Below are positions 1 through 11,462 of a stretch of 11,462 nucleotides of DNA, piece by piece. Where the stretch lies: IMG/VR virus record IMGVR_UViG_2703719355_000014, positions 1 to 11,462 of that record. One strand, written 5' to 3'. The notes beneath the pieces are model-generated. The model saw only the letters and a program-made list of their open reading frames with translations, was not told where the DNA came from and ran no database searches. The stretch is from a virus (taxonomy: Duplodnaviria; Heunggongvirae; Uroviricota; Caudoviricetes). Numbering within the stretch: the first letter of the stretch is position 1; the number at the start of each line of letters is the position of its first letter. Made by a program: the position numbers and the translations under genes.

Positions 1-73
1 GCCATACTCCTCCGGCAGAAGCAGAAAAAGCTTATTATGCTTCCATCGGAAACGATGATCTGGCAGCCTGAGT

Positions 74-1234
74 TCACAGATAAAACACTCTCCAGGAAAC
101 CCGGGGCGGTTCATAACGCTCAACCAGACGTTTAAGAATCATGTATCGCACACGACGGATAATGAAGCGATCAAAGTCACCACAGAACATGAATTTTTTA
201 CCCGCCCCGATATCATCAATTTCCTGATCAATGACATACGGTACATTCAACACTGAAGCAGGTGCCACACCAACAATATCCGGCAACCATAAAGGGCGTC
301 CCTGACCGTCTTCCATCTCACTGATCAGTTTCAGCGTATTATCGTTAAACGCCAGGCGGAATTTCGGCCCGCGACGATATGCAGGATCAATGCTGTGTTT
401 CAGAGCCAGAATTTCCTGCCACTTCACCGTATTTGCCGCGGCAGTCTGTGTTGTGCCGGTCACAGATGCGACCAGCCCTTTGGGTTGTTTAGGCGTACCA
501 GCACCAGTTCCCTGAATCAGATAACGGGCTTCACCACGACCAATACGTTCAGCAATGCGACGGGCAAGATAAGCTTCCATATCGATCGCGCTGTCCTGCA
601 GCAACTCATTAGACACACGAATGATTTTCGATGTCATTTTGAGCGCCCCAAGACTTCCCATACCGAAATCGGTGTCTTCTTCACCGGCTTCTTCATTTTC
701 GCCCAGCAGAACACCAACTTCGGAAGTACCATCAGCTGTTGCCCACTCCATAGTGCGACCGTCAGAAGTGGTCAGAATCTGCGCCACACTGGCGATGCCA
801 CCGTAGGATTTCATCTTCTCAACAACTTTCGCCAGGAATGTTTCTGGTACGGTATATCCGCCCTTTTCATCCTGAGCTACACCCTGGGCACGAAGTTCAC
901 GCAACGCCTTTCGTTCTTCTGATGTCAGCTCACTGGCACCGTGACGCATCCACTTATCAAAAACCTGAGCTCGTTTCTCATCCTGTTGCGGATTGTTTTC
1001 CGGATCAAGATTCTGACGCTGCTCTTCCTCATTGCTTTCAATGTACGCCTGATCCTGACGACGCAGTTCTTCTTCGCGTGCAATTCGTTCATCAAGCGCT
1101 TCCAGTTCGGATTTTGCTTTGTTCCACTCAGTGCGCTGCTCTTCCGTCCATGCGTTATCACCAATTTTTTCATTCAGGGCGCGCATGTCAGTTGCGATAG
1201 TATTACGTTTCTGTTTCAGTTCATGCAGTTTCAT
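74..1234 (-). CDS. Major capsid protein, HK97 family
   Basis: 386-aa ORF with a charged coiled-coil N-terminal region (delta-domain-like) followed by a Gly/Thr-rich body typical of the HK97 fold. It follows the prohead protease in canonical order. AAGGAA Shine-Dalgarno 6 nt upstream of the ATG at 1234; TGA stop at 74-76. Confidence 0.85.
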   Translation of the reverse strand: MKLHELKQKRNTIATDMRALNEKIGDNAWTEEQRTEWNKAKSELEALDERIAREEELRRQDQAYIESNEEEQRQNLDPENNPQQDEKRAQVFDKWMRHGASELTSEERKALRELRAQGVAQDEKGGYTVPETFLAKVVEKMKSYGGIASVAQILTTSDGRTMEWATADGTSEVGVLLGENEEAGEEDTDFGMGSLGALKMTSKIIRVSNELLQDSAIDMEAYLARRIAERIGRGEARYLIQGTGAGTPKQPKGLVASVTGTTQTAAANTVKWQEILALKHSIDPAYRRGPKFRLAFNDNTLKLISEMEDGQGRPLWLPDIVGVAPASVLNVPYVIDQEIDDIGAGKKFMFCGDFDRFIIRRVRYMILKRLVERYEPPRVSWRVFYL

Positions 1235-1244
1235 GATGTTTCCT

Positions 1245-1847
1245 TTACGCGTTAAGAAGGGTCAGGACGCGTTCACGCGCCATACGTTGATTAATGGCTT
1301 TCTGTAGCGCGCCACTGTTGCGCGCCTCCTGCCATGCTTTCATGGAGCGAACAGCCGAGTCAGCCTCCTGATAGGCAGGATATGTCACAGGACTGACATC
1401 CAGCAGACGGGAAAAGCGGGTTATCTCGCGAATAACAACCCCGTCCTCATCCTGATACCACTCCTCACCGTCACGGGCGACACGGAAAGCGAAAGATGAC
1501 TGGTTAATATCTCCACGTTGCATCGGGGCCAGCACCAGATCACGAATGGTCTGTGTCTCCGGAGCCTGGATGTCATAGCGTAATCCGCGCTCATCAACTG
1601 AAAGATTCAGCGTGCCTGCTGCACTACGCCCAAGAATAAAATTAGGATCGTGGTTAAACAGTGCGCGTACATCATCACCAAGCACATCGTCAAAAGCGCC
1701 GGGCCGGATGATTTCGCGGAATGAACCGAATATCAGCTCAGAACGACAGTCAAACACCGATCCATAACCGATAATGTGCGCCGGGTTATCGTCATGCCGC
1801 TCAGCACGCACCTCACCGCTGTAACAACGGATTTCACGGTCATTCAT
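1245..1847 (-). CDS. Prohead maturation protease, HK97 family
   Basis: The ORF track gives 1245..1904, but the internal ATG at 1847 (protein MNDREIRCYSGEVRAE...) has a GAGGGA Shine-Dalgarno 7 nt upstream and matches the usual protease N-terminus. This start overlaps the portal stop by 8 nt. Sits between portal and capsid as in HK97. Confidence 0.8.
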   Translation of the reverse strand: MNDREIRCYSGEVRAERHDDNPAHIIGYGSVFDCRSELIFGSFREIIRPGAFDDVLGDDVRALFNHDPNFILGRSAAGTLNLSVDERGLRYDIQAPETQTIRDLVLAPMQRGDINQSSFAFRVARDGEEWYQDEDGVVIREITRFSRLLDVSPVTYPAYQEADSAVRSMKAWQEARNSGALQKAINQRMARERVLTLLNA

Positions 1848-3066
1848 TGGTTTTTCCCTCATCGTTTTTTGGGGGCTTAAAATCTCCTGCCGGGTTAGCA
1901 GCATTCACGCTTACCAGCATCTCGTCCAGCCCTTCAACCGGATTCATATCCTCAAATGCGCGGGCCTCATTACGGCTCATCCATCCATCGGTAATAGCGA
2001 AGTGATAGAATTGCGTGCGCTCCTGCGGAGTTCCGCGTAAAAGCCCCGTCAGATTGAACCTGACGTAATACCCGGCGGCTAACTCAGCGCGGGTAAACAA
2101 GCGACGGTTAAGCTCCTGCTCCCAGTTCGTCACCCACGGCATCATCGTGTAGCGGACAAACTGAATCGCCTGCGCAGAAATATTGGAGAAGGTGGCTTTT
2201 TCGAGGTCATTAATCATGTGCGCAGGAATATTGAAAATACCGGCGATCATTGAACGGTTCAGCTTCATCATGTCAATGATCTGAGCGTCAACTGGCGACA
2301 CAGTCAGTGCCTTGTAATCCAGATCTGCTGGCAGCAGCATGGTTTTGTTTTCCTGGCGGCGTAACGCCTGCGATGCCTTCTGCCACTGTTCTTTAAGCCA
2401 GCCCCAGCTTTCCTTATTGAGTCCGCTTTTAACGGATACTATCCCCGCCGGACGGGCATTACCGCTGAAGAAGCTTTCTGTGTACTTCTGACCGCTCATC
2501 CCCATGCCTATTGTTTCGGCATGTTGCATAATCGGACTCAGCCCCATCTTCTGATTATTACCCAGCGCTCGGATGTGGATCATATCGTCGGGGCTGATCG
2601 CAAACGCCCCATATTCGTTGTACAAACCGTAGGTGTATCGGCCACCAGTATTCATCAGCGTCGTTTCCCACGGCATACAGCAATCCAGGGATATGACTTC
2701 ACCGCGACGATTACGTTTCACCCAGGTATACCCATTCCCCCAGCCAAGGATGTGACGTTGCTTCAGTTCGCGCCATTTGTAACTGGTTTGCCAGGTATTG
2801 GGCTCATCATGAACCAGATAAAACGCCGGATGATCGCGTGCGGGCTCAACCTTCCCATTGTGCCTGCGCATAACATGCAACGGCATCTGGGCAAGGCTGG
2901 AAGACAGGACATAGATACAGGAATACACCGCAGCCAGTTTCATCGCAGTTTCAGGACTGACATAAACGTCTGCCCGGAACAGCCCATCAGTATCAACGGC
3001 ATCCCCGGTTATCGGGGTGGAAGGATTCTCCAGTGATTTACTTCTGAACAGAGCATCAAGCAGCAC
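1840..3066 (-). CDS. Portal protein, HK97 family
   Basis: Long ORF carrying a portal-like ETAMKLAAVYSCI motif near the N-terminus, placed between terminase large subunit and protease. The maximal ORF starts at GTG 3114 with no RBS; GTG 3066 is preceded by a GAAGGGGGA purine-rich RBS and is preferred here. The start is uncertain (3066 or 3114). Confidence 0.8.
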   Translation of the reverse strand: MLLDALFRSKSLENPSTPITGDAVDTDGLFRADVYVSPETAMKLAAVYSCIYVLSSSLAQMPLHVMRRHNGKVEPARDHPAFYLVHDEPNTWQTSYKWRELKQRHILGWGNGYTWVKRNRRGEVISLDCCMPWETTLMNTGGRYTYGLYNEYGAFAISPDDMIHIRALGNNQKMGLSPIMQHAETIGMGMSGQKYTESFFSGNARPAGIVSVKSGLNKESWGWLKEQWQKASQALRRQENKTMLLPADLDYKALTVSPVDAQIIDMMKLNRSMIAGIFNIPAHMINDLEKATFSNISAQAIQFVRYTMMPWVTNWEQELNRRLFTRAELAAGYYVRFNLTGLLRGTPQERTQFYHFAITDGWMSRNEARAFEDMNPVEGLDEMLVSVNAANPAGDFKPPKNDEGKTNE

Positions 3067-3217
3067 GCGTCCCCCTTCTGACCATAACCAGTGCACCCAC
3101 CAGCAGTAAAGCACCGGACAAAATCAGAGCCGGAGCCATACCAAACTGCAGGTAAACTCCGCACGTAAGCAGGCCAAAACCAGTCAGCCCGATAACATCA
3201 GCAATTAGTGATTTCAT
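3056..3217 (-). CDS. Hypothetical small membrane protein (53 aa), candidate only
   Basis: Not in the ORF track (below cut-off). Its ATG at 3217-3215 overlaps the terminase large subunit TGA stop (3216-3214) as ATGA, suggesting translational coupling. Translation [53 protein letters not shown] has two hydrophobic helix-like segments and a basic C-terminus. No clear Shine-Dalgarno; overlaps the portal 5' end in another frame. Confidence 0.3.
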
Positions 3218-4935
3218 AGAATTAAGAGATCATCGTCCGGATCAAGAGATGAGAGGAAATCGCCAGGTTCTTTGAGCATTGCCCGACCGATCGTCATAAT
3301 CAGTGCAACCGCACCATCGATTTTGTTTTCCGCCTGCTCCTTGACGGGCTTCACTAAATCATCGTTACCAGGCATGTTTTTGCCGACCACATTGCCGATA
3401 CACCAGGTCATGATGGGATTGCCGTCATGATGAAAGCGTCCCGATTCAATCGCTGCTTCCAGCTCTTTCATCGGATCGGACATATTGGCGAAGTTCTGGA
3501 CGATAGTGACGGGATTCAGATCTTCATCAGCAAGGTCATGTGACAGCCCGGTCGCCCCGAAGGGGTCGATGGGTGACTCACTGACCGGGCTGATTTTGTT
3601 CGCCGCTTTGGCCTAGCGATAATCCACCTCTGCACCATCGGTAACGGTCAGGACGCCCATTTCCACCCATTTCTGAAAGCGTTCGGCTGTCCGTCTATCT
3701 TCATTTTTCTCGACGCTGTACACCGTGTCATACGGTACCCAGAAGCGCGGGGCCACACTGTAGTAATGCGTTTTACCGTCAATCTCGCGGGTATAAAGTC
3801 GCGCCATGCTGTTCATATCCAGCTTACGCGCCAGGTCAAAGGCCAGAATGCACGGCTGCCCCTCGAACTGCTCAAGGGTCAGTGATTTATCCTCGCAGCT
3901 CTGCCAGCTCACCAGGTTGAAATACGCCGAACGTGCCGACACCCAGATATTGAGGTGTTTCGTTTTAAAGACGTTTGCCAGACGGGCGTTATTTTTCGCA
4001 CGCTGCTGCTGACTTAACAAAAATTCGCGATAAACCGACACGCCAATATTTGGATTGGCTTTTTCCAGCACCTGCGGGTCGGTCCAGTCGTCACCTTCAT
4101 CAACGGTATAGATGATCCCGAACAGTTCATCGTTAGGCACCGAGCCGTTGAGCATCTCGATGACTTCCCGCCGCTTGTCGTAGCACAGCCCCTCAATGTT
4201 GTACCCGGCGGTGGTGATGGCCCACATCAGTGGCTGACGTCGCGCCCCCATCCCGGTAAGCATTGTGGTATAAAGCGCATCGGTGGCATGCTCGTGATAT
4301 TCATCAACCACGGCACAGTGGGGTGATGAACCATCACCGGGGTTACCGATCAGCGGTTCAAACCGCGCGCCATCCTCCGGACGGTTCATGTTTGAGGCGT
4401 TAACCTCAATCCCGAACGCTTCCGTCAGCATGGGTGTGCGTTTACACATCAGTCGCGCCGGGCGAAAGACTTCCCACGCCTGTTTCTCTGTCGTGGCACC
4501 GGAATACACTTCCGCGCCAAACTCGTTATCACAGGCAAAACAATACAGGGCAACACCGGCAGAGATTGCTGATTTGCCGTTCTTACGGGGGATTTCGGTA
4601 TACACCTCCCGGAAGCGGCGCAACCGGGTGCCTTTATTGACCCAGCCAAACGCACAGCAGATCACAAATAGCTGCCACGGCTCCAGCGTGATGGGCATCC
4701 GTTTGAATGCCCACTCACCCTTGGTGTGCGGCAACAGCTGAATAAATTTCGCGGCCCGTTCAGCCAGGTCCTTGTCGAAGCGGTAACGAAACGACTTACT
4801 TTTTTCCGCCATCAGGTCATCAAGATGGCACTGGCAGGCCTGAATCACAAACTGGCAGGCAACAATCTTTCCGCGCACGACATCCCGGGCATACTGATTG
4901 GCAGCATTTACGTTGGGGTAAGATTTCCGGCTCAT
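3214..4935 (-). CDS. Terminase large subunit, interrupted by one in-frame TAG at 3613-3615 (possible pseudogene, suppressed amber or sequencing error)
   Basis: ORFs 3613..4935 (440 aa) and 3214..3483 are in the same frame. I translated 3484-3612 by hand and it is open in that frame (…[55 protein letters not shown]…), so a single TAG separates the two parts. Read through, the product is about 573 aa, a typical size. Its ATG overlaps the terminase small subunit stop (ATGA at 4935-4932). Confidence 0.8.
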
Positions 4936-5426
4936 GACTCGATGATTTTCAGAAACGGGTTAGTGGCTTTCTTCTTCCCCGCCAGGCCAATCAGACGCTG
5001 GCGGCTGCTGGGGTCGAGTCCGAGCATTGCCCCCGTGCTGCTCATCTCGGACTCCTGTTCTTTCTTGGCGGTCAGCTCCGGGTTTTTGACCATACCGCCC
5101 ATTGCACCGGTAATGGTGTTGCCCTGGCTGGCAATATTTTTCACGGCACGTCGCCAGAACTCATAGGCCACGCACCACCGCTCAAGCACCGCGAGGTCAG
5201 TCACGCACAGCAGGCCCTGACCGCAGAGTTCTTTGGTTGTCAGTTGCCACATGATCGTGGCGAGAGGGAGATCTTCTTCAGCGAACCACTCCGGTGGCTC
5301 AACACCTTTGATGGGCGTAAAAACAGGTTCATCTTTATTCAGGGCTCGCTTGCCGGGGTTTCCGGCCAGCGCCTTGCGCGCCGTTGGCTTGGGGCGACGC
5401 CCGGAACGCCCCGCCGTTCCAGCCAT
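4932..5426 (-). CDS. Terminase small subunit (P27-like family)
   Basis: Basic N-terminus [14 protein letters not shown]..., located immediately upstream of and overlapping the large terminase. The ATG at 5426 has an AGGAG Shine-Dalgarno 8 nt upstream; the ORF-track start at 5435 is a GTG without better support. Confidence 0.75.
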
Positions 5427-5435
5427 ATGCGGCAC

Positions 5436-5551
5436 TCCTGGTTAAATTTCATTTTTCGCGGGTATAAAAAAACGATGGGGCGGGCAGTCCGGAAGACGTC
5501 AGGTCACAGGGATTTGACCCGCCCCTCCCCTCAGACAGTTGAGAATTATTA
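5436..5551. other. Candidate cos / packaging-site region (GC-rich dyad between HNH and terminase small subunit)
   Basis: Intergenic segment with GGGGCGGG (5477-5484) and its exact reverse complement CCCGCCCC (5518-5525), an inner GGTCA/TGACC repeat (5502-5506 / 5514-5518) and a GACGTC palindrome (5496-5501). In HK97-like phages cos lies between the HNH gene and the small terminase gene. On the minus strand the dyad is followed by TTTTTTTAT, so a terminator or attenuator is an alternative reading. Confidence 0.3.
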
Positions 5552-5902
5552 TCACTTTAACCGTTCACGGGCCGTCTTCGCCTTATGGCAGGGCCAGCAC
5601 AGACTCTGCAGATTACTGTCGGCATCAGTGCCGCCATGCGCTTTAGGAACGATGTGGTCAACGGTTTTCGCCTCACGCACCACACCAGCATGCAGACATG
5701 ACTGACACAGGCCTTTGTCACGCTTCAGCACACGTCCACGGATGACGTCCCATTTCGCACCATAACCGCGCTGGTGTCGGGACTGGCCTGGCTTGTATTG
5801 CTTCCAGCCTTCGCTTTTGTGGCTTTCGCAGTAGCCTGACGGGTCTGTAGTGGTATTACGGCAGCCGCGAACGCGGCAGGCTTTTGGGATTCGTGATGGC
5901 AT
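5552..5902 (-). CDS. HNH endonuclease (terminase-associated)
   Basis: Zinc-binding HNH motif (CQSCLH...VDHIVPKAHGG...NLQSLCWPCHKAK). The ATG at 5902 has a GGAG Shine-Dalgarno 5 nt upstream; the ORF-track N-terminal extension to 6001 has no support. Position directly upstream of the terminase genes matches the HK97 arrangement. Confidence 0.8.
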   Translation of the reverse strand: MPSRIPKACRVRGCRNTTTDPSGYCESHKSEGWKQYKPGQSRHQRGYGAKWDVIRGRVLKRDKGLCQSCLHAGVVREAKTVDHIVPKAHGGTDADSNLQSLCWPCHKAKTARERLK

Positions 5903-6022
5903 ATGTACTCCAATGAAGAAGCCACCGACATAGCCTCCTCCATTCATCGTGAAACTATTTTCATCTACGCAGTCATGAATTCTTTGTAGAGTTGTGATCA
6001 ATACAACTCACTAATGGAGAGG

Positions 6023-6044
6023 CTTGTCCAACACGTTGGACAAG
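6023..6044. repeat. Palindrome CTTGTCCAAC-AC-GTTGGACAAG (10-bp arms)
   Basis: Perfect 10-bp inverted-repeat arms separated by 2 nt, lying in the 425-bp non-coding region between the HNH start and bor. Could be an operator-like protein binding site or a stable hairpin; function unknown. Confidence 0.4.
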
Positions 6045-6124
6045 TTTCCTGTTTGATTTACTGGACACTATAGAAGGACAGAATGCCTTCCTCACTCGAA
6101 TAACATTAATTAAGGAGGTTCAAC

Positions 6125-6247
6125 ATGTTTCATTCCACAAATCATCAGGCTGTAATTATGGCTGTATCAGTTTGTGCCACAGACCTTTTCCGCTTCACTT
6201 TGAGCCTGATTCATTTCTACCTGACCGGCTCGCCTCTATCTTTTTAA
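6125..6247 (+). CDS. Hypothetical small hydrophobic protein (40 aa), candidate only
   Basis: Near-consensus Shine-Dalgarno TAAGGAGGT 5 nt upstream of the ATG at 6125. Translation MFHSTNHQAVIMAVSVCATDLFRFTLSLIHFYLTGSPLSF has one hydrophobic segment. Below the ORF-track length cut-off; same strand as bor and upstream of it. Confidence 0.3.
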   Translation: MFHSTNHQAVIMAVSVCATDLFRFTLSLIHFYLTGSPLSF

Positions 6248-6427
6248 TCCCCGCTTTATCCAAATTGCATTGCCAGAATGCCGACAACAGACTGACATTC
6301 AAATCCTGACTACCTCCAATAGTCTGACCGTACACCTATATAGTTTTAAATTTCATCAATCCATTTAACTATCGTTTAATTGTTGTCACATAGGATTCTG
6401 CCGTTTTTAACAATGCAGGATAATAAG

Positions 6428-6721
6428 ATGAAAAAAATGTTGTTTTCTGCCGCTCTGGCAATGCTTATTACAGGATGTGCTCAACAGACGTTTACTGTTG
6501 GAAACAAACCGACAGCAGTAACACCAAAGGAAACCATCACCCATCATTTCTTCGTTTCGGGAATTGGACAGGAGAAAACTGTTGATGCAGCCAAAATTTG
6601 TGGCGGCGCAGAAAATGTTGTTAAAACAGAAACCCAGCAAACATTCGTAAATGGATTGCTCGGTTTTATTACTTTAGGCATTTATACTCCGCTGGAAGCG
6701 CGTGTGTATTGCTCACAATAA
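6428..6721 (+). CDS. bor: Bor lipoprotein (lambda Bor-like, serum-resistance lipoprotein family)
   Basis: Translation from the ATG at 6428 (MKKMLFSAALAMLITGCAQQTFTV...) has a signal peptide and LITGC lipobox, is 97 aa, and matches lambda Bor closely from memory. AGGA Shine-Dalgarno 7 nt upstream. Opposite strand to the lysis genes, as in lambda. Confidence 0.9.
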   Translation: MKKMLFSAALAMLITGCAQQTFTVGNKPTAVTPKETITHHFFVSGIGQEKTVDAAKICGGAENVVKTETQQTFVNGLLGFITLGIYTPLEARVYCSQ

Positions 6722-6731
6722 TTGCATGAGT

Positions 6732-6749
6732 TGCCCATCGATATGGGCA
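6732..6749. terminator. Hairpin between convergent bor and Rz (7-bp stem TGCCCAT/ATGGGCA, 4-nt loop)
   Basis: Inverted repeat in the 31-bp gap between the stops of bor and Rz. No clear U-tract on either strand, so terminator function is uncertain. Confidence 0.3.
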
Positions 6750-6752
6750 GCT

Positions 6753-7214
6753 CTATCTGCACTGCTCATTAATATACTTCTGGGTTCCTTCCAGTTGTTT
6801 TTGCATAGTGATCAGCCTCTCTCTGAGGGTGAAATAATCCCGTTCAGCGGTGTCTGCCAGTCGGGGGGAGGCTGCATTATCCACGCCGGAGGCGGTGGTG
6901 GCTTCACGCACTGACTGACAGACTGCTTTGATGTGCAACCGACGACGACCAGCGGCAACATCATCACGCAGAGCATCATTTTCAGCTTTCGCATCAGCTA
7001 ACTCCTTCGTGTATTTTGCATCGAGCGCAGCAACATCACGCTGGCGCACCTGCATGTCAGTAATTGTCGAGTTCGCCAGCTTCAGTTCTCTGGCATTTTT
7101 GTCGCGCTGGGCTTTGTAGGTAATGGCGTTATCGCGGTAATGATTAACAGCCCATGACAGGCAGACGATGATGCAGATAACCAGAGCGGAGATAATCGCG
7201 GTTACTCTGCTCAT
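6753..7214 (-). CDS. Rz: Rz i-spanin (inner-membrane spanin subunit)
   Basis: 153 aa with an N-terminal TM segment and coiled-coil periplasmic domain; nearly identical to lambda Rz from memory. Overlaps the R stop and contains Rz1 embedded in the +1 frame. Confidence 0.9.
6812..6994 (-). CDS. Rz1: Rz1 o-spanin (outer-membrane lipoprotein spanin subunit), embedded in Rz
   Basis: 60-aa ORF wholly inside Rz in another frame. Signal peptide with VVGC lipobox and a proline-rich mature region (PPPPPAW...PPPDW), as in lambda Rz1. Confidence 0.85.
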
Positions 7215-7687
7215 ACCTCAATCTCTCTGACCGTTCCGCCTGCTTCTTTGAATTTTGCAATCAGGCTGTCAGCCTTATGCTCGAACTGACCATAACCAGC
7301 ACCCGGCAGTGAAGCCCAGATATTGCTGCAACGGTCAATTGCCTGACGAATATCACCGCGATCAATCATCGGTAAAGCGCCACACTCTTTAATCTGCTGC
7401 AGAGCTACAGCGTCCTGGCTTTCTGGAGAAAAATCTTTCAGGCCAAGCTGTTTACGGTAAGCATCCCACCAGCGTGAAAGAAGCTGGTAACGTCCGGCGG
7501 CTGTTGACTTGAGTTTCGGGTTTAGCGTGACAAGTTTGCGAGGGTGATCGGAGTAATCAGTGAAGAGTTCACCACCAACAATAACGTCATAACCGTGGTT
7601 ACGTGTCGGTTGTCGTCCGTTATCCGTTCCTTCTGACCAAGCCACCATATCGAGGAAAGCTTTACGCTGGGAATTTAGTACCTGCAT
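7211..7687 (-). CDS. R: Endolysin R (lambda-type lytic transglycosylase)
   Basis: 158 aa, [26 protein letters not shown]...; nearly identical to lambda R over its full length from memory. Sits between holin and Rz. Confidence 0.9.
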
Positions 7688-7690
7688 AAA

Positions 7691-8017
7691 TTACTCCTTA
7701 GAGCCACCAAATTTGTTACCGATTACTCGCATTGCAGCCCCACGAATAGCATTGACACCGATCAGCCCCACCCCACCACCAATGGCAACAGATAGTGATT
7801 TAGGCCATCCGACATACTCAAGAGCGGATGCAAAAGTCAGCGTCAGAGCACCACAGAGTAGAATTTCGAGTGTTTTTCGCTTCCAGCCGCCACCACCGCC
7901 AAAATAGGCAATACGTAAACCAGCCATAACAATCGACATAATCACTGCGCCCAGCGGTGTGTCTCCACGCCACCAGCTCTGGACCAACTCCAGCCAGGTA
8001 TTTGGGTTATGAGGCAT
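7691..8017 (-). CDS. S: Holin, lambda S family (class I)
   Basis: 108 aa with hydrophobic helices and a basic C-terminal tail. Pattern resembles lambda S (…MAGLRIAYFGGGG… against lambda …MAYLRGRYNGG…). Immediately upstream of R. Confidence 0.8.
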   Translation of the reverse strand: MPHNPNTWLELVQSWWRGDTPLGAVIMSIVMAGLRIAYFGGGGGWKRKTLEILLCGALTLTFASALEYVGWPKSLSVAIGGGVGLIGVNAIRGAAMRVIGNKFGGSKE

Positions 8018-8159
8018 TTGTAGTTATCTCTCACCTCGCCAATACAGGAGGTGCAAATTGAGGGAACATCATGTACCGCAAATCAGAAGCGGAAACGTAA
8101 AAGAGGCCGAGCCAATGGATAACTGCGGTATAGACCAGGCTCAACAAATAGCCGGGTCC

Positions 8160-8188
8160 AGAAACGACAAACCCGCTCGACGGCGGGT
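8160..8188 (-). terminator. Candidate intrinsic terminator (tR'-like) on the minus strand
   Basis: Stem ACCCGC/GCGGGT (8171-8176 / 8183-8188) with a 6-nt loop. On the minus strand it is followed by TTGTCGTTTCT. It lies about 210 nt downstream of the candidate late promoter, comparable to the lambda pR'-tR' spacing. Confidence 0.3.
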
Positions 8189-8401
8189 TTAAGCTGTGTG
8201 GCGAAGTGACCACTCTTAACACGATACAATAGTTTTTGCGTACGCGTTAGCATTTTTGATGGAAGTTAATGGTTGTTAATCTTATACTCAGTAAACAAAA
8301 TTTATGCCGCCTTGAGCATGATGCGACATTAGGCACATGTTTGGATCTTCCTCGAAGATTCGTGCGGTAGCTATGCTCAAAATCCAATCAGCTCATAAAA
8401 C

Positions 8402-8430
8402 ATACTATGGGTTTTAAATGCTCATTCCAA
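8402..8430 (-). promoter_or_regulatory. Candidate sigma70 late promoter (pR'-like) on the minus strand
   Basis: Minus-strand TTGGAA (-35; plus 8425-8430), 17-nt spacer, TAGTAT (-10; plus 8402-8407). Overlaps the start codon of the first cassette gene on the other strand. Found by eye only and lies in AT-rich DNA where such matches arise by chance. Confidence 0.2.
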
Positions 8431-9167
8431 CATCTCTATCAAAACAACCAGTAATCGAAGCTGCTTTCGAAATGCGTTTTTCTAAAGAAACACAAATATC
8501 GGAAATAGTTCCAGGGTTTCTTTTTCACGCTCTAGGTTGTACAAAACCAGTAATTAGTTTACCACCCAGTCAAATACCTAAAAATGTTCGTGAGGGAGAT
8601 GAACAATTACATTACGCAGTTGTCAGTCGCCTCGAAATCGAAGGGTACTATATTGGACTAAGTGACCATGGTGTTGTTGTATCCACCAGCACCAAATATC
8701 AAGGGTGGAGTCATTTTAGAGAAAAAATCATTCATGTATTAAATGAGCTTAACAAATTAAATTTAAATGACAACATCATCCGCTACTCATTAAAGTATGT
8801 AGATTTTTTCCCAAAAGAAGACGATTCTAATTTATTTGATAAGCTAAACGTCAGCTTAAATATGGCTGGCGAGTCTATGTCTAATTATCCGATCAATATC
8901 AGAATCGATAAAAATGAAGGCGCATTTCTAAATATAATTCAAATATTATCTCATGCTTTAGTCATGTCAGATAATGGAGAATTTAATAAAAAAGGACTAA
9001 TCCTAGACATAGACAGTATTAGGCAAATCACTAATACTGATGAAATAGATAAGTTTAAAAACGAACCCAAAAAAATTCTTGATGATCTTCACTCCTGTAA
9101 TAAATTAGCTTTCTTTAGTTGCCTTAAAGAGTCAACAATTCAAGAACTAGAACCATCCTACAAATAG
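8418..9167 (+). CDS. Hypothetical protein (249 aa), first gene of AT-rich cassette
   Basis: Long ORF on the strand opposite to the phage late operon, with Asn/Lys/Ile-rich composition typical of low-GC DNA. TAG stop. No catalytic motif recognised; weak GGG-type RBS only. Confidence 0.7.
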   Translation: MLIPTSLSKQPVIEAAFEMRFSKETQISEIVPGFLFHALGCTKPVISLPPSQIPKNVREGDEQLHYAVVSRLEIEGYYIGLSDHGVVVSTSTKYQGWSHFREKIIHVLNELNKLNLNDNIIRYSLKYVDFFPKEDDSNLFDKLNVSLNMAGESMSNYPINIRIDKNEGAFLNIIQILSHALVMSDNGEFNKKGLILDIDSIRQITNTDEIDKFKNEPKKILDDLHSCNKLAFFSCLKESTIQELEPSYK

Positions 9168-9182
9168 AAATGGTGGTATGAT

Positions 9183-9527
9183 ATGTATCCGTCTCATCAT
9201 GTTTATCGAGCTCAACTTCAAGTATTAACTTTGGTTTTATATGGTCTGCATATAACAGCATTAACAGACATTGCCCAAAATCAACAGCATGGTCCTCAAC
9301 AAAGTTTAATCGTCAAAAATCACGCTTTGGAGTATAAGTCTTCAACTACCGATTCAGTTCATTCCATCACACAAACATATAAAGCAGGGAGCACAATCTC
9401 AGTTGATCAAAGACTTGCAGTCTCGATGACAAACTTTTATGAAAAATTATCAACAAACCAGGTGTCTTTAGGCAGTGAAATAAATAAAGTCGTTCATGCT
9501 TCACTGTGGGATTTATACTTGGATTAA
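9183..9527 (+). CDS. Hypothetical protein (114 aa), second cassette gene
   Basis: ATG at 9183 is preceded by a GGTGG Shine-Dalgarno 6 nt upstream and lies 15 nt after the upstream stop. N-terminal hydrophobic stretch (LQVLTLVLYGLHITAL) may be a membrane anchor. Stop TAA at 9525-9527. Confidence 0.6.
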   Translation: MYPSHHVYRAQLQVLTLVLYGLHITALTDIAQNQQHGPQQSLIVKNHALEYKSSTTDSVHSITQTYKAGSTISVDQRLAVSMTNFYEKLSTNQVSLGSEINKVVHASLWDLYLD

Positions 9528-9530
9528 GTG

Positions 9531-10145
9531 ATGAGTAATAACATTTTTGATATCGAGAAATTCAAAGATCAAATTCCATATTATTTAACAGCTCCTCAAA
9601 AAGAAGGGCTAATAAATGCACTTAGAGATTTCCCTGAAAACACTAACTACTACCTTACCAATTATCATGATGATCTGAAAAATGCTGCACTTCAGGGAGA
9701 TATATTTAAGGAGCTTACAGTATATTCAATTAAAGGGACTAAAAAAACACGAGGAATTATATTAAGCAACAGTTGCGATATAGATACAAGTAATAATCGT
9801 GATGTGCCAATGCGTGCAGTCTTTGCTCCGTTAGTAAGTTTATCTAAGTTCGAAGCTATTCTTCTCTCCAACGGAGTTTCTAAGACTTCAATAGATAGCA
9901 AAATTGATGCTATAAGGAAGCAGTTAATTACTAATATTTTTTATCTTCCTGAATCAGACAACTTAGAAGAATGCATCGTTTTTCTTGATGATGTATACCA
10001 ATTACCAACGGAAGAATTACAAAAACTCTTGAATGATAAATGCAAAGCCATAACTTTAAGTCAAGTTGGTTTCTACATTTTACTATTCAAAATATCTATT
10101 CACTTTTGTAGATTCCATGAAAACATACAACGATTCGATCATTAA
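9531..10145 (+). CDS. Hypothetical protein (204 aa), third cassette gene
   Basis: Start ATG 9531 (or GTG 9528) immediately follows the upstream TAA, giving TAAGTGATG and suggesting translational coupling. No recognisable domain. TAA stop directly followed by an intrinsic terminator. Confidence 0.7.
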   Translation: MSNNIFDIEKFKDQIPYYLTAPQKEGLINALRDFPENTNYYLTNYHDDLKNAALQGDIFKELTVYSIKGTKKTRGIILSNSCDIDTSNNRDVPMRAVFAPLVSLSKFEAILLSNGVSKTSIDSKIDAIRKQLITNIFYLPESDNLEECIVFLDDVYQLPTEELQKLLNDKCKAITLSQVGFYILLFKISIHFCRFHENIQRFDH

Positions 10146-10172
10146 GGCGGTACTACCGCCTTTTATTATTTT
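10144..10172 (+). terminator. Rho-independent terminator of the cassette operon
   Basis: AAGGCGG-tacta-CCGCCTT stem-loop directly followed by TTTTATTATTTT on the plus strand. The T-tract overlaps the stop codon of the convergent Q gene. Confidence 0.6.
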
Positions 10173-10515
10173 ACACAAGTATACTTACAACCCCCTCTAT
10201 AAAACCGATTGCGGTTTGCAACTCCTTCCTAATAGTGCCATCAGAGCACCTTCTCTTTTTGGCAATAGTGCGTAATGAGATACCAATAACAAAGTGGGCT
10301 ATGATGAGCTCATATTCCTCTGGTTTATACCTTCTCAACCGAGCCACACAACTGTCTATCATAATGCCTTCGTCATCATCACACTGAATCCGTGACTTTT
10401 TGCCATGAGGTAAAAGCCCCTTGAAGCCTGCTGCTACCGGCTGCCAGTCCACACCACTGTTGTCTGCTGCAGCCCATGCTCCCCAGCGGTCCAATACTTC
10501 ATACATATCACGCAT
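10171..10515 (-). CDS. Late-gene antitermination protein Q (QuuD-like, Phage_antitermQ family)
   Basis: Translation from the ATG at 10515 (MRDMYEVLDRWGAWAAADNSGVDWQPVAAGFKGL...CSDGTIRKELQTAIGFIEG...) resembles the DLP12 QuuD-type Q proteins as I recall them. GGAG Shine-Dalgarno 7 nt upstream; the ORF-track TTG start at 10530 is less likely. Confidence 0.75.
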   Translation of the reverse strand: MRDMYEVLDRWGAWAAADNSGVDWQPVAAGFKGLLPHGKKSRIQCDDDEGIMIDSCVARLRRYKPEEYELIIAHFVIGISLRTIAKKRRCSDGTIRKELQTAIGFIEGVVSILV

Positions 10516-10533
10516 CAACTTACTCCACAAAAA

Positions 10534-11451
10534 TCAGGCCAGCACGCCAATTGCCAGCGCACGATCGATAAAACGAAATATCAGCTCCAGCTGGGAGCCA
10601 TACTTCTCTTCAAATGCCACGGTATCCGCATGCAGCTCGTCGTGATGCTTTCTGCACAAAGGCAACACAAAGAGATCATGCGCTTTTGTACCCATTCCAC
10701 CCTGACCGTGGCCTATCAGGTGGTGGGGATCATCAGCAGGCTTTCCACAACATGCACACGGTTGCGTCTTAACCCAGCGCGTGTACTTTTCATTAACCCA
10801 GCGGCGACGTTTTGGGCGTAACATAAAAGACTCCGGCGACTCCGGATCCACTTTCAGCGCCAGCACCTTTTTCGCTTTATCCTGGATGATGCTGGTGGCA
10901 GGAACCGAAGGCACAAGGTCACTTTCCCGGGTGACAGATGGCACAACAGGCTTCGGTAATCTCAGTGCCTTACGGGCTGCACTTTCCGGTAAGGCATCCG
11001 CCAGATCATTACGAATCAACCACCAGCACAGTTCCGGCATTGTCACAACGTGACTGTCATCAAAACCGAGATCCCGACGCACAACAGACAACACCCAGCG
11101 GGCACAGTTATCCGTTGCCATTGATTCCAGCCATTCCGTGAACTGATCGCGCAGCTGGTTATCGCAGTGCCAGCACAGACGGATTGCGCCCGGAGCGTGT
11201 CGCATTGTGGTCATGTTCTCGCTGTGCCAGTCGGAATGAGGCCACTGGCAGCCTTTTTCACGAAGTAACCAGCTTTCAAGACATTCCACGCCACCAGCAC
11301 GACGGATCACTGCCTCATTGCGGAACACGGCCCGAACGGCAGGATCATCCGCCAGCGGTTGTGATGCCGCCGGAACGGCACCACTGGCGAAAGATGAGTA
11401 ACGTTCCGGCTCAGGCTCCAGCAGGACACGCCCCTGCATAAACAGGGGCAT
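10534..11451 (-). CDS. DUF968-family phage protein (putative HNH-like zinc-binding protein, YdfU-like)
   Basis: C-terminal CxxC...HH...C..HH motif (QPCACCGKPADDPHHLIGHGQGG...LCRKHHDELH) typical of DUF968 proteins that sit upstream of Q in lambdoid prophages. The frame stays open from 11452 to the window end, so the true start may lie beyond the window. Confidence 0.7.
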   Translation of the reverse strand: MPLFMQGRVLLEPEPERYSSFASGAVPAASQPLADDPAVRAVFRNEAVIRRAGGVECLESWLLREKGCQWPHSDWHSENMTTMRHAPGAIRLCWHCDNQLRDQFTEWLESMATDNCARWVLSVVRRDLGFDDSHVVTMPELCWWLIRNDLADALPESAARKALRLPKPVVPSVTRESDLVPSVPATSIIQDKAKKVLALKVDPESPESFMLRPKRRRWVNEKYTRWVKTQPCACCGKPADDPHHLIGHGQGGMGTKAHDLFVLPLCRKHHDELHADTVAFEEKYGSQLELIFRFIDRALAIGVLA

Positions 11452-11462
11452 CAGCTCTGAAC

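Follow-up and report, generated by a model that had tools for sequence, protein, structure and literature searches.

A three-gene cassette convergent with Q occupies the interval between the antiterminator gene and the predicted late promoter of a lambdoid prophage

The 11,462 nucleotides (nt) of Caudoviricetes DNA in IMG/VR record IMGVR_UViG_2703719355_000014 (positions 1 to 11,462; the whole stretch is referred to here as the window) contain a gene for a Q antiterminator and, between this gene and the late genes, a cassette of three genes oriented toward Q. All of the phage late genes of the window lie on the minus strand. In order of transcription, the DUF968/HNHc_6 gene (11451-10534), directly upstream of Q, is followed by Q itself (10515-10171), the low-G+C block of three plus-strand genes (8418-10145), the lambda-family holin gene S (7691-8017), which is the first late gene, the endolysin gene (7211-7687) and Rz/Rz1. 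Beyond Rz/Rz1 come a plus-strand Bor gene and then the genes for an HNH endonuclease, the small and large terminase, portal, protease and capsid. The resulting order (RusA, KilA-N, DUF968, Q, cassette, holin, endolysin, Rz) is the one expected around a Q of this family.

The minus-strand open reading frame (ORF) 10171-10530 scores 151.3 bits against PF06530 (Phage_antitermQ; curated cut-off 26) over profile positions 1-112 of 118, which places its product in the Q21/QuuD family. The protein also matches phrog_79, 'anti-termination protein Q-like' (E = 1.5e-46), and shows a weak but specific match to the Q protein of phage 21 (PDB 6jnx/6p18; E = 0.0012). RefSeq starts the gene at the ATG at 10515, giving a product of 114 amino acids (aa); GGAG lies 7 nt upstream of this codon, and the in-frame TTG at 10530 is unlikely to serve as the start instead. 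The C-terminus reads ...GFIEGVVSILV, and the stop codon is TAA at 10173-10171 ('tta' on the plus strand). Relative to seven related genes, codons 1-100 show proportions of non-synonymous (pN) and synonymous (pS) differences of 0.02-0.13 and 0.34-0.84, respectively, and the ratio of the corresponding rates (dN/dS) is 0.03-0.06 where dS correction was possible. For the last 13 codons (101-113), pN is 0.22-0.35 and dN/dS reaches 0.27-0.36, still below 1. Q thus appears to be a constrained gene, under strong purifying selection over codons 1-100 and with a looser tail. Nucleotide identity to relatives is only 53-57% in the last 30 nt of Q, in part because the tail is under looser constraint. We considered reading this sharp fall as a recombination breakpoint and set the idea aside, since the fall is at least partly accounted for by the greater non-synonymous divergence of the tail.

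The cassette has a G+C content of 0.28-0.37, compared to about 0.5 in its flanks. Its first gene (8418-9167) encodes a TIGR04255 family protein of 249 aa; the structural model of this protein has a predicted local distance difference test (pLDDT) score of 90 and shows no convincing fold match, and we found no paper that mentions TIGR04255 in the literature searched. The second gene (9183-9527; 114 aa, phrog_5728) lies directly upstream of the third, and the C-terminal half of its product is conserved in distant copies of the operon. The third gene (9528-10145; 204-205 aa, with the RefSeq start at the ATG at 9531) encodes a protein whose predicted fold resembles those of the solved MazF/CcdB/Kid toxins, although it matches no family in Pfam, NCBIfam or PADLOC. 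None of the three proteins matches a PADLOC defence family or any family that carries a function. The three genes occur together and in the same order in many distant Proteobacteria, among them Trinickia, Allochromatium, Desulfobulbaceae, Caballeronia and Pseudomonas peli (loci L027-L059), and make up a real mobile operon. A role in toxin-based defence or addiction is plausible.

On its upstream side, the cassette is preceded by a cargo-specific leader (8258-8417), part of which, GTATAAGRTTAAC, is kept in two copies of the cassette that are 65% identical to this one (L023 and L024). The leader should hold the plus-strand promoter of the cassette. On its minus strand it carries a -35-like hexamer, TTAACA (8279-8274), 16 bp upstream of the A-rich box described below. 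At the other end, the stop codon of the last cassette ORF (10143-10145) and the convergent Q stop are 25 bp apart, and these 25 bp consist entirely of a hairpin and a T-run. Positions 10144-10162 of the plus strand (AAGGCGGTACTACCGCCTT) form an 8-bp G+C-rich hairpin that is followed by TTATTATTTT; the predicted fold has a free energy of -11.7 kcal/mol (z = -3.35), and only 1 of 200 shuffled sequences was as stable. With its 8-bp stem followed by UUUUAUUAUUUU, the element (10144-10173, plus strand) has the form of an intrinsic (Rho-independent) terminator of the convergent cassette, and it is the sole terminator-like site on the plus strand in a scan of 7600-10700. Its T-run (10163-10173) contains the Q stop codon, just as a preliminary description of this DNA had pointed out. 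The cassette is therefore an independent unit on the opposite strand, with its own leader and its own terminator abutting the Q stop.

Between the cassette and the holin gene lies a conserved block (8257-8160, minus strand). At its upstream edge is an A-rich box, AAAAAT (8252-8257), and all 30 distinct sequences compared have an A/T-rich hexamer here. Next come the palindrome GCGTACGC (8238-8245) and a -10-like hexamer, TATCGT (8226-8221), which runs into GTTAAGAGTGGT (together 8209-8226); the latter served as the search anchor. Both the palindromic core and the GTTAAGAGTGGT block occur once in the window. The block ends upstream of the holin gene with an intrinsic terminator, AAACCCGCCGTCGAGCGGGTTTGTCGTTT (8160-8191), that resembles tR' of lambda, and the terminator scan likewise reports a minus-strand site at 8191-8168, within the 400 bp between cassette and holin. 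The same block is found in phages SfII, Stx2a_1447, mEp460, cdtI, 434 and PA-2, followed by varying genes. In an alignment of seven phages, the invariant columns are CGTnCGnAAAnnnTnnnnTAnnnTGTTAAGAGTGGT, the TAnnnT positions of TATCGT are invariant as well, and the block runs on into the terminator AAACCCGCCGTCGAGCGGGTTT. This terminator is conserved across phages with differing downstream genes (holin; methylase/tRNA/stx; ADP-ribosyltransferase). In three prophages with different cargo, the sequence is shared from the holin gene to CTAACGCGTACGC and diverges beyond it. An Rfam search of 7900-10700 gave no match.

DNA binding at the late promoter underlies the action of Q proteins (PMC6606751), and the block has the anatomy expected of a Q-controlled promoter, which by analogy with the established paradigm (PMC6606751, PMC7547250) would make a short constitutive transcript ending at a terminator. 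In the absence of Q, the tR'-like terminator would end such a transcript after roughly 55-85 nt. The published account of the Stx late promoter (PMC6266700) holds little useful detail on the type of Q studied here. The palindrome in the block, of 8-9 bp, varies with the Q subfamily: GCGTACGC is present at all of the short-form loci examined (E. coli, Shigella and Klebsiella as well as IMG/VR contigs, including the cassette-bearing L023 and L024), GCGGTCCGC at five loci with a long-form Q (120-126 aa), and ACGTACGT in 434, PA-2 and mEp332, which have a QuuD-type Q. Between Q and the block lie 38 nt to 3.8 kb of DNA, with no relationship from one class to another. The palindrome is thus probably the Q binding element, and because it tracks the Q subfamily, the Q of the window would keep its cognate target on the far side of the cassette.

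Two placements of the promoter fit the sequence of the block. In one, the A-rich box would be the -10 element, the palindrome would span approximately +1 to +8, and TATCGT with GTTAAGAGTGGT would act as a sigma-dependent pause element. The window would then offer TTAACA-16 bp-AAAAAT, and the cassette-free locus of E. coli Combat2C1 would offer TTGATT-16 bp-TGaAAAAAT, with the -35 hexamer inside the last Q codons. In the other, TATCGT would be the -10 element and GTTAAGAGTGGT the start region, the palindrome would be located in the spacer separating -35 from -10 (the situation in lambda and 21), and the A-rich box would be an UP-like element. Under either placement, the predicted promoter lies downstream of the cassette. 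The idea that each cargo supplies a new -35 to a split promoter, as TTAACA might do here, was dropped as a general rule; most other classes have a poor -35, so it could hold only locally.

Relatives in which Q and the block adjoin were also found. A chimeric query joining window positions 8166-8258 (the block) to 10171-10420 (the 3' end of Q) gave one continuous alignment of 338 bp in each of 13 complete E. coli genomes; in a further genome it aligned as two neighbouring pieces. In the Combat2C1 empty site, the Q stop codon TAA is followed by GTTATGAAAAAATCA and then CTAACGCGTACGCAAAAACTATTGTATCGTGTTAAGAGTGG. Cassette-free relatives with a Q of the same subfamily have the Q stop 45 nt from the conserved block sequence GTTAAGAGTGG, compared to 1,950 nt here, and hence the cassette sits between the Q stop and the A-rich box (8257-8252). 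An initial query (8018-8258 plus the whole of Q) had found no place with at least 80% coverage, which suggested that no cassette-free state exists; the shorter query overturned this. The initial query contained the holin leader, which cassette-free loci do not share, and against phage records it recovered cassette-free long-form loci at 52-54% coverage. Relatives remain similar in DNA up to the Q stop codon and no further, and the final 0-5 residues of Q, like the stop codon itself, are peculiar to each cargo class. These data bear out the earlier suggestions that the cassette separates Q from the late genes (the holin start at 8017 is 2,153 nt from the Q stop) and that the junction is at the very 3' end of Q.

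To see how common this layout is, we surveyed the 80 closest Q relatives in IMG/VR and located the block in 68. The distance from the Q stop to the block is 654-3,780 nt in all 68, and the intervening DNA always has its longest ORF oriented toward Q (187-1,050 aa, versus 40-110 aa for the longest in the Q direction). Besides the empty state, at least 17 classes of junction can be distinguished in this interval; all are convergent with Q, and every class has a Q tail of its own. The interval thus qualifies as a hotspot for prophage cargo (morons). L023 and L024 carry the same cassette (65% identical) beside a Q that is 72-76% identical, and they retain the stop-hairpin-stop layout and the GCGTACGC core. 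The arrangement of Q, cassette and block thus appears to be general and old. Most other cargo classes also have a hairpin, of -10 to -22 kcal/mol, starting no more than 12 nt from the Q stop, and in some, including L089 and L112, the Q stop codon forms part of the hairpin stem. One exception to the stop-hairpin-stop rule is E. coli FDAARGOS_401 (L004 3959-3979), where 21 nt at the 3' end of Q are also part of the last cargo ORF, on the opposite strand, and no hairpin separates the two.

Cargo at the same position elsewhere includes the nmpC/lc porin gene in 434, PA-2 and mEp332, a KAP-family nucleoside triphosphatase that corresponds to PADLOC PDC-S20 (E = 1e-175; L003 1925-3256), and a gene pair of SfII that corresponds to PADLOC PDC-M53A/B (L007 2904-4518); both PADLOC entries are candidate defence systems. 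The interval from Q to the late promoter may therefore be a defence hotspot; we found no paper describing a hotspot at this position in the literature searched. As for the cassette studied here, the 2.8-kb region from the holin start through the cassette and Q to the end of DUF968 is covered to at least 80% at one place in 92 complete E. coli genomes, and this stretch is 100% identical to its counterpart in an E. coli ACN002 prophage. By analogy with the genome records of 434, mEp460, SfII and cdtI, which show the same layout, the separation of Q from its promoter would not be a defect. Taken together, it is highly probable that a standard cargo slot, bounded by the Q stop and the late-promoter module, accommodates the cassette, and that the layout is ordinary for this phage group rather than the result of a damaging insertion. 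The layout is of a kind already known, to which this locus adds a different cargo.

Other explanations of the junction deserve consideration. The preliminary description had observed that Q looks shorter than QuuD-type proteins, and had suggested that the acquired DNA supplies its stop codon. The length difference is real, as the protein is 13 residues shorter than QuuD of phage 434 (114 versus 127 aa), and the cassette-free Q proteins of PhiR49_2, Stx2_14040 and 1720a-02 (126 aa) exceed it by 12. An insertion inside the 3' end of Q that removed a QuuD-like tail, supplied a new stop and left the late genes uncoupled or weakly controlled would also account for the low identity in the last 30 nt and for the cargo-specific last residues and stop codons. 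Yet the 120-127 aa forms (QuuD of 434, the Q proteins of cdtI and M11957 and the three cassette-free proteins just named) belong to other subfamilies; they are 46-57% identical to the window Q, go with a different promoter motif, and carry a tail with LEMD or similar that the short-form subfamily wholly lacks. Within the short-form subfamily, the 114 aa of the window compare with 115-116 aa in cassette-free loci (Combat2C1, TUM9757) and 113-118 aa beside other cargo, and by this comparison the gene is not truncated. The cassette-free Combat2C1 protein (115 aa, ending in ...GFIDGCICLILS) aligns to the window Q without gaps and ends one residue later, not at the same residue. The outcome that the preliminary description had named as refuting, homologues without an insert that end at the same point, is thereby essentially reached; with this homologue in hand, the truncation proposal is, on the sequences compared, already largely refuted. 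Add to this the purifying selection on Q, its retention beside a diverged copy of the same cassette, its cognate promoter motif and the same architecture in the four phage records cited above, and we regard a damaged Q as very improbable. Q would instead be a complete antiterminator of working length, belonging to the short-form subfamily of PF06530 and predicted to be active. A separate observation on Q length concerns Shigella phage SfII (L007 4522-4833), whose 103-aa Q lacks 13 residues, between GAW and AAGFKG, that all relatives have.

A more serious contender is that no insertion at the Q stop took place in this lineage, and that Q and its cargo travel together as a module by homologous recombination in the DUF968 and promoter-block flanks. 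The DUF968/HNHc_6 protein is 97-100% identical across E. coli prophages (the window and L002-L008), compared to only 52-90% for the Q genes of the same loci, and the mosaic boundary at the DUF968/Q junction is sharp; this conserved gene could anchor recombination on the Q side. The 3' end of DUF968 is 90-100% identical across E. coli loci, Q identity falls steadily toward the 3' end, and both the allele and the tail of Q are specific to the cargo class. Searches of E. coli genomes gave similar numbers for the two parts, with 94 records for Q alleles of at least 95% identity and 92 for the full cassette region. We give this proposal a substantial chance, if somewhat short of even. Module exchange is compatible with a cargo slot, however, as it explains the spread of cargo and not its first entry. 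In FDAARGOS_401, the middle of Q is 97-100% identical to that of the window but the cargo differs, so crossovers inside Q also occur, and the faster change in the tail partly reflects relaxed constraint. Turning to the hairpin, it might mainly serve Q, either by stabilising or terminating the early transcript at its 3' end or, as a two-way terminator, by shielding the cassette from early transcription. Indeed, several other cargo classes (for example mEp460, M11957, cdtI and Klebsiella phage ST846-OXA48phi9.1) have hairpins that are followed by a T-run in both directions or in that of Q. Here, the minus-strand hairpin is followed by AAUGAUCG, which contains no U-run, in contrast to the UUUUAUUAUUUU of the plus strand, and the scan places a terminator at 10144-10162 on the plus strand only; moreover, cassette-free loci have no such hairpin after the Q stop, and the hairpin therefore comes with the cargo. 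A primary role in Q expression is accordingly improbable. Lastly, the true late promoter could lie elsewhere, for instance after Q in the 3' end of the cassette and antisense to it, which would reduce 8160-8257 to a leader or attenuator. Weak minus-strand promoter-like matches do occur inside the A+T-rich cassette (at 9205, 8970 and 8742), but the 7 found compare with 9.5 expected from shuffled sequence. The block and the palindrome are each present once in the window; in cassette-free relatives the block begins directly after Q, and it is the only sequence common to all cargo classes. A promoter within the cassette is thus scarcely credible.

Several points nonetheless weigh against a standard cargo slot with a fully working Q. 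The cassette-free Q is only 86% identical in protein to that of the window, and represents a relative rather than the ancestor of the locus. As the last 13 Q codons evolve faster, a small functional effect of the tail may exist. Our identification of the palindrome rests on co-variation over only three classes, and could partly reflect linkage. The promoter and its start are placed from sequence only, with two placements that fit; sigma-70 scoring over the 30 sequence classes does not separate them, and the -35 hexamers are poor in most cargo classes. Finally, given an in-frame stop in the large terminase gene (see below), this prophage copy may represent a non-viable phage whatever Q does.

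With these caveats, a working scheme for the locus can be outlined. In the lysogen, the cassette would be expressed alone, and its terminator would block antisense transcription into Q and the early genes. On induction, Q made from the early rightward transcript would bind the GCGTACGC element 1.9 kb away, load onto RNA polymerase paused near the -10-like element, and enable it to pass the tR'-like terminator and transcribe the lysis, terminase and head genes. Because Q and its target are both present, control of the lysis genes should work as in 434-type phages. For transcription coming from Q the hairpin offers no U-run, so that after induction the early transcript may extend through the cassette in antisense. 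We tentatively propose that the slot is a dedicated place, in lambdoid prophages with a short or QuuD-type Q, for self-terminated cassettes that are convergent with Q and expressed in the lysogen, that the cassette described here is an undescribed toxin-based anti-phage system, and that antisense early transcription silences it on induction; as a whole, this proposal is more doubtful than probable.

Elsewhere in the window, the large terminase gene (3214-4935) has one in-frame stop at 3613-3615 (minus strand; ...AEVDYR*AKAANK..., the asterisk marking the stop), leaving two ORFs, of 440 and 89 aa. The gene is annotated as whole in ACN002 (1,734 nt); the copy in the window may have lost the ability to package DNA, or the stop may be a sequencing error. 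The plus-strand gene between Rz and the HNH/terminase genes (6380-6721) encodes a Bor/Iss-type lipoprotein. ACN002 has a gene for a GrlR-family regulator at this place, which therefore represents a second variable cargo position in the same type of prophage.

These results have some practical consequences. The exact empty-site sequence of the cargo slot is now given, and the DNA between the Q stop and GTTAAGAGTGG offers a simple route by which to harvest accessory and defence cassettes of lambdoid prophages. A candidate Q binding element is available for three Q subfamilies that are biochemically unstudied, and could be tested by swapping the 8-bp palindrome. The conserved three-gene operon, with its toxin-fold protein, is a reasonable candidate for experiments.

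Among known systems, the quuD-nmpC/lc-essD arrangement of 434, PA-2 and mEp332 is similar to this one, with a PF06530-type Q, a convergent accessory gene, and then the same block (TAnnnT-GTTAAGAGTGGT plus the AAACCCGCCGTCGAGCGGG terminator) followed by holin and endolysin. The cargo there is a single porin gene rather than a three-gene cassette, the Q protein has 127 aa and is 46% identical, and the palindrome is ACGTACGT in place of GCGTACGC. In 434, moreover, the hairpin starts about 36 nt after the Q stop, and not at the stop as it does here. Prophage DLP12 of E. coli K-12 has the quuD-nmpC/lc-essD arrangement too.

The Q protein of phage 21 is assigned to the same Pfam family in the preprint of Yin et al. 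(bioRxiv 10.1101/651190), and it binds two 6-bp repeats located within the late promoter (PMC6606751). What phage 21 shares with the module predicted for the window is a short repeated DNA element bound in the late promoter, together with a -10-like pause element and a terminator ahead of the late genes. The differences lie in the protein, as Q21 has 162 aa, of which only residues 20-99 align weakly with the window Q, and its last six residues contact RNA polymerase, a stretch with no equivalent in the 114-aa protein; and in the DNA, where two direct TGAGCA repeats contrast with the candidate 8-bp palindrome. The Q/pR'/qut/6S RNA/tR' system of lambda shares the logic and the genome position, with Q, a constitutive promoter, a short terminated RNA, S, R and Rz in succession. 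Unlike the locus described here, lambda has a Q of an unrelated family (PF03589), a promoter directly after Q, and a short RNA of 194 nt, rather than the 55-85 nt predicted above.

Stx-type cargo likewise consists of accessory genes between Q and the lysis genes, as in Stx2_14040, 1720a-02 and Combat2C1. In Combat2C1 (L070 1069-2355), the block is directly followed by genes for a scabin-related ADP-ribosyltransferase and the B-subunit of a subtilase-family AB5 toxin, and then by holins; these toxin genes are placed like stx, under Q control. Cargo of this type lies after the promoter and terminator, in the direction of the late genes, and depends on Q, whereas the cassette described here lies before the promoter, runs in the opposite direction, and has its own terminator.

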